Shown here one piece after another: positions 5,856 through 10,987 of a DNA stretch of 11,336 nucleotides (position 1 is its first letter; every line of letters begins with the position of its first letter). A program made the position numbers and the translations under genes. The notes under the pieces were generated by a model. That model did no database searches and was not told the DNA's origin. It saw only the letters and a program-made list of their open reading frames with translations. Source of the stretch: a virus (lineage: Duplodnaviria > Heunggongvirae > Uroviricota > Caudoviricetes); IMG/VR virus record IMGVR_UViG_2541047121_000017, one strand, 5' to 3'.

Positions 5856-6245
5856 TCAGGCGGCTGCACCCGCCGTTTTCTCGTACTTACTGATAGTGAT
5901 CTCGACCTTCCCTTCCGGGATAACCGGTCCCCACTCCACCAGCATTCTTTTCACCTGACTGTCGTCTTCCCACACACCCGCGTGGGTCAGGGCGTCAAAC
6001 AGCGCCTTGTTATAGTTGTCCAGATCGCGGATCCGGTTATCCGGAGGAAACAACACGATCTCCACTGAAGCAGGTGCCGACGTTGGTTTCGGCAGACGAC
6101 GTAACTGCTCAACTATTGCTGCGCACGCCGCGCTCTGGAATTTTCGCCCCGCCGCGCTTATCAGGCTCTTACCAGCAAACGCCCCTTTGTTGGGGTGTCG
6201 CCAGTACGTGTTCACGCTGGGCGGAAAAGGCAGGATCAGCTTCAT
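5856..6245 (-). CDS. rusA: RusA-family Holliday junction resolvase
   Basis: 129-aa ORF alignable to E. coli RusA (LPFPPSVNTYWRH…; …RDLDNYNKALFDALTHAGVWEDDSQV… vs RusA …[26 protein letters not shown]…). Its start overlaps the upstream stop (ATGA). Confidence 0.9.
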   Translation of the reverse strand: MKLILPFPPSVNTYWRHPNKGAFAGKSLISAAGRKFQSAACAAIVEQLRRLPKPTSAPASVEIVLFPPDNRIRDLDNYNKALFDALTHAGVWEDDSQVKRMLVEWGPVIPEGKVEITISKYEKTAGAAA

Positions 6246-6568
6246 ACTTTCAGGTCCCTCTCATGTAACCAGTGGGTTGCACGCAGCCTTGCGTTTTCCT
6301 CACCGGCAAGCAGTGCGCGGATAATCCCGACCGCCTCGCTGTCGTCGTCCTTCACCGCGATATGAAGCGTTATCCCCCGGGCCACGCCACGCTTTATCGT
6401 GATGACGCCTTTTTTCTCCAGTGCGCGAAGATGCTCCACCGCTGCATTCACTGAACGGTATCCCAGCATGGTTGCCACCTCCTGATTGGTTGGCGGGAAG
6501 CCACGTTCTTTCTGATAAGAAATCAGCATATCCAGCACCTGCTGCTGGCATTGAGTTAACGTCGTCAT
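6242..6568 (-). CDS. LexA N-terminal DNA-binding-domain homologue lacking the S24 peptidase domain (108 aa)
   Basis: Residues ~4-70 align with E. coli LexA 1-70 (LTxxQQxV…G.PPT..E.A..LG.RS.NAA.EHL.AL..KGVI.I..G..RGI.L). The ORF ends soon after a linker (…ALLAGEENA…) with no Ser/Lys catalytic domain. ATGA overlaps at both ends. Confidence 0.8.
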   Translation of the reverse strand: MTTLTQCQQQVLDMLISYQKERGFPPTNQEVATMLGYRSVNAAVEHLRALEKKGVITIKRGVARGITLHIAVKDDDSEAVGIIRALLAGEENARLRATHWLHERDLKV

Positions 6569-7218: not shown

Positions 7219-7712
7219 TAAGCCCCCACGTAATTCCCTGACAGATACCACTCTTCACCCGATACAGCGCGCTTGCTGCTTTTCCGTAAGCACCGCTCAC
7301 GACGCGCCAGAAAATTGTTTCGTTCTGGCTGGGAGTGGCTTTCACGGAATGCCGCCATCCACACCGTTGCAGCACGACGGTATAAGCCCCTGGACTCCAG
7401 TTCTTCAGCCTGGCGGGTCAGGCACAAAATCACCCGGGGATCGTTAGTGCCGACATAGAAATTGCGCACAGGTCTGGTTTCACGAACTGGTTGTGGTTCC
7501 GGCTCCTGCGCTCTCTCAGTCAGGCGCGGGAAATGTCTGCGTGTATCCCCTTCACAACGGTGAGCCACACGCCCACTCTGACGTAACTTGCTTGCAGACT
7601 GCAGAACGCGCTGCCGTGAGTAACCTGCAAAAGCATCCGCAATGTCTCCGGAAGTACAGCCCGGATGGGCTTCAATGAATTTCTGAACGTCATTCAAAAG
7701 ACTCATGCTCAC
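7218..7712 (-). CDS. Hypothetical protein with C-terminal PerC-like motif (possible PerC/Pch-family transcriptional activator), 164 aa
   Basis: C-terminal AEELESRGLYRRAATVWMAAF resembles the conserved PerC-family signature as I remember it; the N-terminal ~60 aa looks winged-helix-like. ATGA overlap with the initiator stop supports a real gene. Functional call is tentative. Confidence 0.5.
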   Translation of the reverse strand: MSMSLLNDVQKFIEAHPGCTSGDIADAFAGYSRQRVLQSASKLRQSGRVAHRCEGDTRRHFPRLTERAQEPEPQPVRETRPVRNFYVGTNDPRVILCLTRQAEELESRGLYRRAATVWMAAFRESHSQPERNNFLARRERCLRKSSKRAVSGEEWYLSGNYVGA

Positions 7713-8650
7713 CCCCTGAATCCTGCCGGGATCTGGCTGTAGTCCACGTTGTCGTAACTGGCTTTGAAGTACGGGTCCTCGCGTTTTTCGGTGTACGTGC
7801 TGACGGACGGCGATAAGCGCAGGGAAAGCTCATCCCATTTTTCCCGCAGCTTCGACGGGCTGAGCACGTTACGGCACCAGAACGGATCGCGACTGACGCG
7901 GCTGTACATCTCGCAGATTTGTTTATGAGTACGACCATCCTGCACACACATCAGGCGAATTTCGTTTGCCCAGGCTGTCCAGTTCGGTTCTTTGGGACGA
8001 ACCACCTCGCCGTCACATTCGGCGGCATGCTCGTACAGGGCGATGATTTTTTTCCAGAGCCACTGTGCACAGGTCAAATCATCCTGCGTCCCCCACTGGC
8101 GCTTTTTAGGGCTGAATACAACCGCATCAGGATGGCGAGTTAAAAAATCCTGTTCATCCGTCTGCGTGTCCGGTTGCGAAGCGTCCGGACGAGAAGGTTT
8201 TTTATCTGACGGATCATGTTTTGATTTTACTGACGGATCCCCGCCAGATTCTGACGGGTGAAAACCCGCTTTTTTGCCAGATTTCGACGCATCAAATTTT
8301 GACGGGTCAGATTTTGATGCGTCAGATTTTGACGGGTCAGAATCTGACAGTTGAGAAAATGCCGCTGCCTGAAGCTTCGCAACGTTAAGCTGATAAACAT
8401 TCGACGCATTGCGGTTACCCTGGCGACGCGCCTTACGCGTTAACCAGCCTTCTGCTTCCAGCCGTGCGATAGCCGTTCTGACGGTGCTCATCCCCGCGCC
8501 AATCTGGCGGGCAATGGTTTCAATTGATGGCCAGCACACACCTTCGTCATTACTGAAATCAGCCAGGCGGGCCATAATTGCCACGCTGGATAACTTCATG
8601 CCTGACGCAGCGCAACCATCCCATACATAGCCGGTTAATTTAGTGCTCAT
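7709..8650 (-). CDS. Replication initiator (lambda O-like organisation: N-terminal HTH domain, iteron-encoded repetitive linker, C-terminal domain)
   Basis: 313-aa ORF. N-terminus has an HTH (…SVAIMARLADFSNDEGVCWPSIETIARQIGAGMSTVRTAIARLEAEGWL…). The central region (SDPSKSDASKSDPSKFDASKS) is encoded by tandem DNA repeats. Positioned after the cII-like gene. Confidence 0.7.
   Translation of the reverse strand: MSTKLTGYVWDGCAASGMKLSSVAIMARLADFSNDEGVCWPSIETIARQIGAGMSTVRTAIARLEAEGWLTRKARRQGNRNASNVYQLNVAKLQAAAFSQLSDSDPSKSDASKSDPSKFDASKSGKKAGFHPSESGGDPSVKSKHDPSDKKPSRPDASQPDTQTDEQDFLTRHPDAVVFSPKKRQWGTQDDLTCAQWLWKKIIALYEHAAECDGEVVRPKEPNWTAWANEIRLMCVQDGRTHKQICEMYSRVSRDPFWCRNVLSPSKLREKWDELSLRLSPSVSTYTEKREDPYFKASYDNVDYSQIPAGFRG
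8203..8355. repeat. Iteron-like tandem array (about 15-bp units, consensus near GATTTTGACGGGTCA); candidate phage origin inside the initiator gene
   Basis: At least seven imperfect direct repeats with core TGACGG / GACGGG / GATGCG at roughly 15-bp spacing between 8203 and 8355. This is analogous to ori-lambda inside gene O. Confidence 0.6.
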
Positions 8651-8998: not shown

Positions 8999-9546
8999 GC
9001 GTTAGTTTCTCCACAGTCACGACACGCCACGGCGCCCGGAGCTGCACACTCGCGGGCGTCATTACTTTCTGAAATGCAAAAAATTTTGTAGACCAGTGCT
9101 GCATGCTCCTGCAGCTTCGAAATTGAGAGGTACAGCTCGTCGTTAATTGCTGTCTTCTCATGCGGTTCCACTACACCGTCTTCAATTGCTGAACGAATCT
9201 GTTTTGAATAACTGCCGATCTGTTCAATGACCTCCAGCAGGCGTTGGTTGATATCGGCGTTGTCCACATCCTCGACATCAGGAAGAGACACAAAGACGCC
9301 ATTTGCAGACTGCGCCACAGCGTCAGCAATGAAGTGAGTTCCACCAGCACGTTGCAAAATCATTGCCCATCCCAGCGGGAAAATCTGATCGCCATCGGCA
9401 CGAAGGCGGTTAAATAATGCGTTCTCTGTTACATCCAGCCAGTCAGCAGCTTCAGCGTACCCCCCCGGCAACGCTGCGATAGTTTTTCTGACAGCTTTCA
9501 CGTACCACTCAGGCTGTTTTTCTACTTTCCAGTGATGCTTACCCAC
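8995..9546 (-). CDS. CII-like early regulatory protein (CP76/YdaT-like family), 183 aa
   Basis: GTG start at 9544-9546 with a near-perfect Shine-Dalgarno motif (AGGAGGTGA) 5 nt upstream. Sits immediately after the cro-like gene. Family assignment is by synteny and general resemblance, not a verified alignment. Confidence 0.6.
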
Positions 9547-9799
9547 GGTTCACCTCCTGTTCCTGTGGTTTAAACCCATTCTGGTTTTGGCTAGATTGAA
9601 AACGTGCCGGATAAAGAATCTGCATTTCGCTGACTTCACCCTTAAAAAAATTGGCTAAACGTTCTGCAAGCTCGATAGATGGAATCTGCTCCAGCCTCTC
9701 AATACGACTCAACGTCGCTGGATTGACTTGAACACCCGCAGCAACATGCTGCAAAGTGAAACCATGCGCCTTACGCACATTTCGTAATGGTGATTGCAT
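9539..9799 (-). CDS. cro: Cro-like HTH (XRE-family) regulator, 86 aa
   Basis: HTH signature (RKAHGFTLQHVAAGVQVNPATLSRIERLEQIPS…). Transcribed divergently from the cI-like gene, with a GGAGG Shine-Dalgarno motif 4 nt upstream of the ATG. Confidence 0.75.
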   Translation of the reverse strand: MQSPLRNVRKAHGFTLQHVAAGVQVNPATLSRIERLEQIPSIELAERLANFFKGEVSEMQILYPARFQSSQNQNGFKPQEQEVNRG

Positions 9800-9896
9800 A
9801 CGCCCTCCAAATATTGCGCGTTATGCATGTTATTTCACGCAATTATTTTGCGCAAGTTGATTTGCTTATCACGCAATAAAGAAATGTAATAAACGC
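9800..9896. promoter_or_regulatory. Immunity-region intergenic segment with divergent promoters (pR-like and pRM-like) and operator-like TTGC/GCAA inverted repeats
   Basis: 97-bp AT-rich spacer between divergent cro-like and cI-like genes. Contains TTGCttatcacGCAA (9862-9876), the palindrome TTGCGCAA (9848-9855) and CGCAAttattTTGCG (9838-9852). A candidate pRM (-35 TTGCTT 9862-9867, -10 TGTAAT 9885-9890) would start transcription at or near the cI ATG. Confidence 0.5.
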
Positions 9897-10589
9897 ATGA
9901 ACATAGGAAACCGAGTCAGACAACTTCGCCAAGCGAAGAACATGAAAATCGCCGATCTCGCTGAAGCGATAGGAGTAGATGCGGCGAACATCTCGCGCTT
10001 AGAAACGGGTAAGCAAAAACAATTTACCGAACAAACACTGAGTAATATTGCCAAGAGCTTAGGTGTTGATATTGCTGATCTCTTTACCTCTGCCCACAAA
10101 AGTAATACTGTATATAAAAACAGTAATAATGAGGATGTTGCGCAGGTGAAGGATGTGTTCCGTATTGAAATGCTGGATATCAGTGCCAGTGCGGGAAATG
10201 GCCTTATCCAGGGCGGTGATGTCATTGATGTGATTCATGCCATCGAATACAGAACTGATAATGCTGTATCAATGTTCGGCGGACGACCAGCCAATCACAT
10301 CAAAGTTATCAACGTTCGTGGGGACAGTATGTGTCCAACCATTGAGCCAGGAGATCTCATCTTCGTTGATGTCAGCATCAATCAGTTTGATGGTGATGGT
10401 ATATATGTCTTTGGTTTTGATGACAAAACATACGTTAAAAGACTTCAAATGATTCCTGACAAACTGCTGGTGATTTCTGATAACCAGATTTACCGTGAAT
10501 GGGGAATTACTAGCGAAAACGAACACCGATTCATGGTCTTTGGAAAGGTCTTAATCAGTCAGTCGCAAACCCTTAAGAGACATAATTAA
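9897..10589 (+). CDS. cI: CI-like repressor (N-terminal XRE HTH plus C-terminal S24 LexA-like autopeptidase domain), 230 aa
   Basis: N-terminal HTH (RVRQLRQAKNMKIADLAEAIGVDAANISRLETGK) and C-terminal S24 signature with the catalytic Ser in GDSM (RGDSMCPTIEPGDLIFVD) and Lys in YVKRL. Divergent from the cro-like gene. Confidence 0.9.
   Translation: MNIGNRVRQLRQAKNMKIADLAEAIGVDAANISRLETGKQKQFTEQTLSNIAKSLGVDIADLFTSAHKSNTVYKNSNNEDVAQVKDVFRIEMLDISASAGNGLIQGGDVIDVIHAIEYRTDNAVSMFGGRPANHIKVINVRGDSMCPTIEPGDLIFVDVSINQFDGDGIYVFGFDDKTYVKRLQMIPDKLLVISDNQIYREWGITSENEHRFMVFGKVLISQSQTLKRHN
10106..10125. promoter_or_regulatory. Near-consensus LexA (SOS) box TACTGTATATAAAAACAGTA inside the cI coding sequence
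   Basis: CTGT-N8-ACAG with TA flanks and an AT-only spacer at 10106-10125; two mismatches to the E. coli consensus TACTGTATATATATACAGTA. It is the only CTGT-N8-ACAG in the window and encodes the cI interdomain linker (…TVYKNSN…). Confidence 0.6.
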
Positions 10590-10608
10590 CCTCAATATCC
10601 CATCCATC

Positions 10609-10632
10609 GGCCACCGAAAGGTGGCTTTTTAT
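10609..10632 (+). terminator. Rho-independent terminator downstream of cI (stem gccacc/ggtggc, GAAA loop, T5 run)
   Basis: Hairpin at 10610-10625 followed by ttttt at 10626-10630, about 20 bp after the cI stop codon. Confidence 0.6.
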
Positions 10633-10643
10633 TACCTATAAAT

Positions 10644-10680
10644 TTGCATATCTCGCAAATACCACTTGCATATCTCGCAA
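10644..10680. promoter_or_regulatory. Two identical 15-bp operator-like sites TTGCATATCTCGCAA, 22 bp centre to centre
   Basis: Exact direct duplication at 10644-10658 and 10666-10680. Each is an interrupted palindrome TTGC-N7-GCAA, the same pattern as a site in the cI/cro intergenic region. Located just after the cI terminator (oL-like position). Confidence 0.45.
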
Positions 10681-10987
10681 TTTAATTTTATCTTTTATTC
10701 CAGACCAACTACAGGATTACAACAAAATCTGGTTGCAACACGGTGCATGTGTCGTAAGCAGTCAGTAAATGTCAAAAACGAACAGGCAGGACGCCCACGA
10801 AGTAGCCGCCTGGGGCATATGAAGTCCAGGATGATTCGTTGAGTCATGTTGTGCCACTAGGCACTCATGTTAAAGCAGGTGTATGAAATGAAAGTCCAGA
10901 TTTTAAACAATAACTGTGAAGTCGTTTGGTCATACGACATAGCCGCCCCTGTAGATCAGAGCGGCGATAGCTGGACCAATGGGAAAC

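Follow-up and report, generated by a model that had tools for sequence, protein, structure and literature searches.

A conserved LexA operator inside the cI repressor gene of SfII-like prophages and the truncated repressor isoform that it may control

Why should an operator for the LexA repressor be kept inside the coding sequence of a prophage's own repressor gene? The question is raised by a stretch of 11,336 nucleotides of viral DNA (IMG/VR virus record IMGVR_UViG_2541047121_000017; "the window" hereafter means this whole stretch), which belongs to a lambdoid, SfII-like prophage and carries an SOS box within its cI gene. Two routes by which the SOS response induces prophages are known: the RecA-stimulated self-cleavage of the repressor, as in lambda, and the production of a LexA-controlled antirepressor, as in 186, Gifsy and N15. 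We compare the box and its surroundings among homologous repressor genes and suggest that it may be part of a second gene, nested within the first, that would yield a truncated form of the repressor under LexA control. The elements in question are the following:

10106-10125, no strand assigned: LexA operator (SOS box) TACTGTATATAAAAACAGTA, covering cI codons 70-77 (N-T-V-Y-K-N-S-N)
9897-10589, plus strand: cI repressor gene, 230 amino acids, with an HTH_3 domain, a hypervariable linker and a Peptidase_S24 domain; 99% identical to SfII cI
10191-10196, plus strand: cI cleavage site Ala99-Gly100, with Ser144 at 10326-10328 and Lys181 at 10437-10439

The initial annotation of this DNA, made from the letters alone, had placed the box in the linker-coding part of cI, and the domain boundaries agree with this: codons 70-77 lie between the helix-turn-helix (HTH) domain at residues 7-62 and the S24 domain at residues 104-218. 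Ala99 and Gly100 of the cleavage site and the catalytic dyad of Ser144 and Lys181 are invariant among 25 homologues, and the cI product is presumably an autocleavable repressor. The box had also been labelled near-consensus, and the counts behind that label stand: TACTGTATATAAAAACAGTA agrees with the consensus TACTGTATATATATACAGTA at 18 of 20 positions, and the window holds no second perfect CTGT-N8-ACAG core. The label nevertheless understates the match, since TACTGTATATAAAAACAGTA is letter for letter the operator of E. coli K-12 umuD (locus L007, 729-748) and also that of sbmC, as listed in Table 4 of PMC3009722. For the weight-matrix scoring that had been proposed as a check, a LexA matrix was made from 16 other K-12 SOS boxes of the same table, umuD and sbmC being excluded. 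With this matrix the box reaches 26.6 bits, a value exceeded by only one of the 16 training sites (range 13.5-27.4), and the runner-up site in the window has 8.7 bits. The best score per shuffled window had a mean of 9.6 and a maximum of 18.0 bits (300 shuffles); as the box lies above this maximum, a chance origin is excluded. It has, moreover, the CTGT-N8-ACAG core, the AT-rich spacer and the TA flanks by which gammaproteobacterial operators are recognized. In the e14 prophage of K-12, no LexA box was found in the repressor gene ymfK; the ymfI coding region of the same prophage contains a perfect CTGT-N8-ACAG core, CTGTACCAGAAAACAG (L008 5582-5597).

The conservation of the box was assessed in homologues picked by protein similarity only, namely 24 loci from contigs with one genome per species, together with annotated phages and a few metagenomic contigs. 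A perfect CTGT-N8-ACAG is present at the homologous codons in 18 of the 24 species loci and CTGT-N8-CCAG in 3 more; when redundant sequences are removed, 19 of 21 homologues have the box at the same codon positions. These box-bearing genes span from about 95% to 50% protein identity across the Enterobacterales and include those of Salmonella ST64B, Citrobacter phiNP, Klebsiella Kp4871-1, Flotzy and Cronobacter ENT47670 (22-26 bits), the last of which still keeps the box at only 50% protein identity, as well as homologues in Pantoea, Serratia and Proteus. The exact 20-mer recurs in 79 of 80 IMG/VR loci. Among the more distant HTH-S24 repressors (at most 45% identity) of HK022, BTP1, Turner, PHL101, PSTCR7lys and ST101phi6.1, no box was found in the gene. 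HK022 (L119:660), Klebsiella ST101-KPC2phi6.1 (L116:814), Providencia PSTCR7lys (L121:680) and BTP1 (L118:740), which have no box in cI, carry a LexA-like site of approximately CTG[TG]-N-ATTGAT[AC]CAGT (8.7-18.9 bits) some 690-840 bp upstream of cI, around the junction of cII and the replication gene, a position that we take to be reminiscent of the LexA-sensitive oop promoter of lambda. A short contig labelled Actinomadura rugatobispora (L110, 1407 bp) also contains part of a cI gene of enterobacterial type in which the box, CTGTATGTATAAACAG, occupies the homologous position, and this is almost certainly a contamination of the actinomycete assembly.

The question then becomes whether it is the DNA or the encoded peptide that has been retained. 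Apart from the motif T-V-[YCH]-x-x-S, the linker (cI residues 65-86) varies more than any other part of the protein in this family, and amino-acid entropy is 2.3-3.2 bits in the flanking codons versus 0-1.7 within the box. Codon choice in the box is nearly fixed: Thr71 is encoded by ACT in 18 of 18 genes (34% gene-wide usage), Tyr73 by TAT in 16 of 16, Ser76 by AGT in 18 of 19 (16%) and Val72 by GTA in 16 of 20 (19%). Codon 75 varies among N, H, D, T, P and S, yet it is always NAC or NCC and thus gives an ACAG or a CCAG arm, both of which are variants found in real SOS boxes. The Erwinia papayae gene has Thr-Gly in place of Thr-Val, with a CTGG arm in a box of 24.6 bits. Third-position entropy is lower in the six codons from codon 71 on than in any other such stretch of the gene (Mann-Whitney p = 2e-4), and at pairs with the same amino acid the identical codon is used at a frequency of 0.92 in the box codons versus 0.44 gene-wide, a value that 100,000 random draws of four conserved codons failed to reach. 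The median nucleotide identity among these sequences is 63%, so that synonymous sites elsewhere in them are close to saturation. The initial annotation had held that freely drifting synonymous sites in homologous repressor genes would tell against the box; what was found is the opposite, the box codons being frozen. On this codon evidence the constraint acts on the DNA and not on the protein, and we consider it very probable that the box is a LexA site under selection.

What such a site would control is suggested by a series of predicted signals around and downstream of it:

10083-10088, plus strand: predicted -35 element TTTACC (Phe63-Thr64 codons), 17 bp upstream of TACTGT
10106-10111, plus strand: predicted -10 element TACTGT, made up of the operator's first six bases, which bound LexA would occlude
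10131-10135, plus strand: Shine-Dalgarno (SD)-like GAGGA, 10 nt upstream of the GTG at 10146, with a predicted anti-SD duplex of -6.4 kcal/mol
10146-10589, plus strand: predicted nested in-frame open reading frame (ORF) of 147 amino acids, S24 domain only, starting with the GTG of Val84
10155, plus strand: alternative nested start, the GTG of Val87 (144 amino acids), which is the start position in most homologues
10609-10626, plus strand: intrinsic terminator 3' of cI, annotated as a terminator in phage SfII

By a simple weight-matrix score, the same best sense-strand arrangement over the box, TT[TC]A[CT]N with a 17-bp spacer and TACTGT, is found in 16 of 19 homologues, at 6.8-9.2 bits against a background 99.9th percentile of 7.2, and the same scoring applied to K-12 umuD picks TTGATC-17-TACTGT at 8.7 bits. 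In Pantoea allii and Rosenbergiella, whose boxes start with G or C, the box itself contains an exact TATAAT, for which a -35 is found at 17-18 bp (11.2-11.4 bits).

The translation signals are more widely shared still. When the 14-60 nt that follow the box were searched, an anti-SD duplex of -5 kcal/mol or stronger together with an in-frame ATG or GTG was found in all 19 non-redundant box-bearing genes, 14-56 nt past the box, whereas the same test elsewhere in the same genes succeeded at a frequency of 0-0.22. Typically, a GGAG or GAGG motif stands about 8 nt before the in-frame GTG or ATG, inside a linker that is otherwise hypervariable; the start is the Val87 codon of a D-V-F/Y-R motif in most genes and Val84 in the SfII/mEp460/ST64B group. 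For a start combined with an SD, column 87 of the alignment ranks first in the gene; the mean SD energy before it ranks third of 225 columns, and GTG accounts for 80% of its Val codons, as against 0-36% for 13 other columns with a conserved Val. The codon register and the amino acids (E-G, G-D, Q-E, R-E-G, K-E-K and others) by which the GGAG/GAGG motif is encoded differ between genes, which indicates selection on an RNA signal rather than on the protein. In an exploratory RNA prediction, the SD-start region was less paired in a transcript initiated at the box than in the full-length mRNA (unpairedness 0.48 versus 0.33, with the higher value for the short transcript in 15 of 19 genes); accessibility rose by 0.15 on average, as compared with 0.04 at control positions. 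An AlphaFold2 model (mean predicted local distance difference test score 50.5) was too poor to set the internal start against the domain boundary. An SOS-controlled internal promoter was one of the options of the initial annotation, and it receives comparative support from the joint conservation of the box, a umuD-like sense -35/-10, the SD and the in-frame start; that a nested C-terminal isoform is made from an internal sense promoter under the control of the box has, in our estimate, a probability of about 0.6.

Several observations weigh against this interpretation. A strict consensus scan of 9500-10700 gave no sigma-70 promoter, and to this extent the earlier remark that no convincing one overlaps the box holds, although TTTACC-17-TACTGT resembles the K-12 umuD arrangement and has a similar score. 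TACTGT agrees with TATAAT at only three of six positions (T1, A2 and T6), and the conservation of the -35 is uninformative because it overlaps the conserved Leu-Phe-Thr codons. Val87 is conserved as an amino acid too, and the Klebsiella Kp4871-1 gene has no well-spaced SD at codon 87, its sole one being at +56. The distant, box-less repressor of Mannheimia PHL101 has an ATG with an SD at the equivalent place. In the Dryocola clade both the box (scores of -11 and 7.5) and the in-frame start (Val87 changed to Gly) were lost, which speaks for a link between them; but two other box-less genes, that of P0055 (L124, a metagenomic contig) and that of a Sodalis endosymbiont (L125), retain the GTG and SD, and the joint loss is therefore not taken as proof that the two elements are coupled. 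The internal start may also be used from the full-length mRNA or from an unregulated promoter. By these comparisons it is a conserved feature in its own right, to which the box would add LexA control without being indispensable for its retention. Finally, whether the isoform would promote or delay induction is a matter of pure inference.

If the box does govern a nested gene, the following sequence of events can be envisaged. In an undamaged lysogen, LexA bound to TACTGT...ACAGTA would cover the predicted -10; strong or prolonged DNA damage would lead to the cleavage of LexA and the internal promoter would fire. The umuD promoter is a late one with a high ED50 (half-maximal effective dose; PMC5999292), and since the operator here is identical, its derepression should likewise need strong or prolonged damage. 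The resulting short mRNA would have its 5' end in the box or immediately past it, carry the GAGGA and the in-frame GTG and run to the cI stop codon and the terminator at 10609-10626, which is predicted to end the cI transcript and the internal transcript alike. Its product would be an N-terminally truncated repressor of 144-147 amino acids, with 12-15 residues ahead of the Ala99-Gly100 cleavage site and the whole S24 dimerization and autocleavage domain, and with no HTH. In both LexA and lambda cI, the dimer interface is in the S24 domain and tight operator binding needs dimerization; an excess of a domain that cannot bind DNA should therefore poison cI dimers or oligomers and favor induction. 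In mixed dimers or oligomers with full-length cI, the isoform would lower operator occupancy and so commit the phage to lysis once damage is severe. By analogy, then, we tentatively rank first the role of a dominant-negative antirepressor, while holding it to be somewhat less probable than not. The opposite role is possible, in which the isoform would serve as a decoy substrate for activated RecA (RecA*) and delay induction in the manner of the Hex protein of phage 434 (PMC3564112). As the C-terminal domains are highly conserved between heteroimmune members of the family, the isoform could also cross-induce co-resident prophages. Two apparent stand-alone homologues of the C-terminal domain gave no support: in phage Omnitron it is part of a full-length repressor with a different N-terminal domain, and in Salmonella phage ST-29 it comes from an apparently truncated c2 gene. 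In ST-29 (L131 1195-1701), the P22/BTP1-type repressor is a 168-residue ORF without HTH that starts about 28 residues before the cleavage site, and it could be a truncated repressor, or else a mis-assembled or clear-plaque variant.

The closest known parallel to this arrangement is umuDC of E. coli. The 20-bp LexA operator is identical, the predicted geometry is the same (a 17-bp spacing to the -35, with the operator's first six bases serving as the -10), and the distance from the end of the operator to the start codon is 20 nt here versus 19 nt in umuD. The predicted isoform resembles UmuD and proteins of the phage P1 HumD type as well, in having an S24 domain, a short N-terminal arm with the cleavage site and no DNA-binding domain, and UmuD/UmuD' are its best sequence matches in the PDB (E = 2e-4). 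The identity to K-12 UmuD is, however, merely 36% over 83 residues. Unlike umuDC, the unit within cI is nested in frame inside a longer repressor gene, the window has no umuC-like ORF and a terminator directly follows cI, and the role to be expected is in the prophage switch and not in translesion synthesis. The UmuDAb protein of Acinetobacter is also comparable, a damage-responsive repressor made up of a UmuD-like S24 protein with an N-terminal DNA-binding extension, and hence fusions of an HTH with a UmuD do occur; but UmuDAb is a chromosomal regulator of error-prone polymerases for which neither an internal operator nor a nested isoform is described (PMC4807011, PMC11332147).

With respect to function, the logic of the proposed dominant-negative isoform matches that of 186 Tum, Gifsy GfoA/GftA and N15 AntC, which are LexA-repressed phage gene products that bind and inactivate a repressor (in part PMC3121763, PMC7067206). 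Those antirepressors are, unlike the candidate described here, separate small genes unrelated to the repressor and usually act against non-cleavable repressors; the candidate is the repressor's own C-terminal domain in the same frame, and the Ala-Gly/Ser/Lys autocleavage apparatus is retained. The Hex protein of phage 434 is likewise a second protein that overlaps a lambdoid repressor gene and modulates RecA-dependent induction, but it is made from the PRM transcript, overlaps the repressor coding region only in part and is not an in-frame isoform; nor is it LexA-controlled, and it stabilizes lysogeny by blocking autocleavage (PMC3564112). With respect to gene structure, the precedents are of another kind. 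Nested N-terminally truncated proteins that arise from an internal start or promoter are familiar from the repressor c of Streptomyces phage phiC31 and from the transposase and inhibitor of Tn5, where a shorter in-frame protein without the DNA-binding part modulates the full-length one. The conserved internal in-frame start with a ribosome-binding site, which all 19 box-bearing genes have, is the trait that the present family shares with this type. To our knowledge, none of these isoforms has been reported to be under LexA/SOS control through an operator inside the coding sequence of an S24 repressor; in Tn5 it is the transposase promoter that is LexA-sensitive and not that of the inhibitor.

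The box can be explained without any internal promoter if LexA bound within cI acts as a roadblock or attenuator of the PRM and PRE transcripts, so that cI output follows the SOS state; cI would then rise upon LexA cleavage and could, for example, buffer the lysogen against mild damage. This proposal, which was among those of the initial annotation, accounts equally well for the conservation of the box taken alone, there is indeed a strong operator about 210 nt into the transcription unit on the path of the polymerase along the template, and the two lineages that have the internal start and no box show that the elements can be uncoupled. It leaves unexplained the conserved SD and in-frame start and the recurrent sense -35/-10 geometry, however. 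A lone LexA dimer so far downstream of a promoter makes a weak roadblock, and it is hard to see any obvious benefit in cI being low in healthy lysogens and higher only at high damage. We thus regard a roadblock as unlikely. An antisense promoter under the box, also suggested at first, fares less well and seems to us very improbable. An SOS-induced minus-strand transcript would interfere with cI and read towards cro, and LexA-regulated antisense RNAs do exist in lambdoid phages, lambda oop being an example; furthermore, the box is palindromic and AT-rich and has -10-like hexamers on both strands. But the best antisense arrangements are scattered over seven positions among the 19 homologues with no shared -35, the flank where a -35 would be needed is the hypervariable linker, and no conserved minus-strand feature was found, while the sense translation signals are conserved.

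The remaining alternatives concern a second LexA-like protein and the origin of the box itself. The former is encoded in the window:

6242-6568, minus strand: a 108-residue protein with a LexA DNA-binding domain only (Pfam LexA_DNA_bind), without S24 protease domain

It aligns to residues 2-69 of E. coli LexA, with the recognition helix RSVNAAVEHL versus RSPNAAEEHL, and it may well bind CTGT-type sites, this box included. As a LexA mimic that cannot be cleaved and would be expressed from the early-right operon, it could re-repress SOS genes during lytic growth. The initial annotation had suggested that the box could be the target of this protein. Its gene, however, is part of a distinct mosaic module, in which it has the dam methylase gene on one side and rusA on the other; 61 phage records contain it, among them those of the heteroimmune SfV, SfIV, cdtI and Stx2c phages, and it is absent from the listed records of the box-bearing ST64B, phiNP, Flotzy, ENT47670 and Kp4871-1. 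Its distribution is thus independent of the cI family and cannot account for the conservation of the box across genera. That the box is mainly a target of this protein during lytic growth is therefore, in our judgment, slightly less probable even than the antisense promoter, though the protein may be an additional ligand in the SfII group. The least probable explanation of all, to which we give hardly any credence, is that the box is a functionless chance sequence or a relic, left for example when the gene long ago fused with one resembling umuD. With the umuD operator the box is indeed identical, and UmuD is the nearest of the solved structures to the C-terminal domain, as such a fusion would have it. 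A relic, however, should have decayed, as the box did in Dryocola, P0055 and Sodalis; instead, its synonymous sites are the most constrained of the gene across lineages that have diverged to about 63% median nucleotide identity. In addition, the flanks are unlike those of umuD (the two 17-nt spacers agree at 6 of 17 positions), a dissimilarity that also speaks against a recent recombination with umuD.

The region in which the box is found is a common one. Positions 9500-10700 (cI, cro, cII) share 99.2% identity with Shigella phage SfII and about 91% with mEp460, 1720a-02, Stx2a_1447 and phiSTEC1575-Stx2k, and they are present at a coverage of at least 80% in 1040 of 5426 complete E. coli genomes (about one fifth). 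The neighbors of cI are:

9799-9539, divergent from cI: ORF for a Cro-like HTH protein
9546-8995: ORF for a CII/YmfL-family protein

Phages 1720a-02 and phiNP, both of which belong to the box-bearing repressor family, are inducible by ultraviolet light and mitomycin (bioRxiv 10.1101/2025.01.01.630987), and the switch of this repressor family as a whole is therefore SOS-responsive. Just past the cI terminator are two perfect 15-bp direct repeats of TTGCATATCTCGCAA (10644-10658 and 10666-10680, 22 bp apart) and a third, degenerate copy at 10743-10757; these are probably the left (OL) operators of this immunity type. Motifs akin to them, TTGCGCAA/CACGCAA, are found at 9836-9880 between cI and cro, the right operator (OR) region. 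The protein of the O-like replication gene (7709-8650) has a repetitive stretch, SDSDPSKSDASKSDPSKFDASKS, encoded at about 8200-8410. As the other reading frames also give repeated peptides (QILTGQ/QNLTRQ), it is the DNA that is tandemly repeated, and the repeats probably represent iterons of an origin that, like that of lambda, is located in the O gene. In the box-less family member P0055 (L124 1100-1767), a HigB-toxin/HTH antitoxin pair is directly downstream of the repressor gene.

A search of the literature for an intragenic SOS box in a prophage repressor or for a LexA-controlled truncated isoform, which included several papers on ST64B, on phiNP/1720a-02 and on the regulatory regions of Stx (Shiga toxin) phages, found nothing. 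The parts are all familiar ones (an SOS box, an S24 repressor, LexA-controlled antirepressors, nested isoforms and UmuD); it is their arrangement inside the linker of a cleavable repressor that is not. The locus suggests a hybrid of the two induction routes, in which a cleavable repressor and its nested, truncated antagonist under a umuD-grade LexA operator are combined in one gene. In its full form the proposal is a tentative one, which we would not yet back at even odds: that the widespread enterobacterial repressor family of SfII, several Stx phages, ST64B and phiNP carries, in its linker and C-terminal half, a complete second in-frame gene, made up of a promoter-operator of the umuD type under LexA repression together with a ribosome-binding site and a start codon, and that this gene yields a UmuD-like antirepressor isoform, deficient in DNA binding, only at high SOS levels, thereby adding a second, LexA-gated threshold of induction to RecA-mediated cleavage. 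If this is true, these phages would read both RecA* and the depletion of LexA, and so set a threshold of damage for the commitment to lysis. The locus is also a clean case of a regulatory DNA site that is kept inside a coding sequence, with the protein linker evolving around the operator. Among the members of the box-bearing family are Shiga-toxin phages, the serotype-converting Shigella phage SfII and Salmonella ST64B; the mechanism, if true, would therefore bear on toxin release and on the induction of such prophages by antibiotics.

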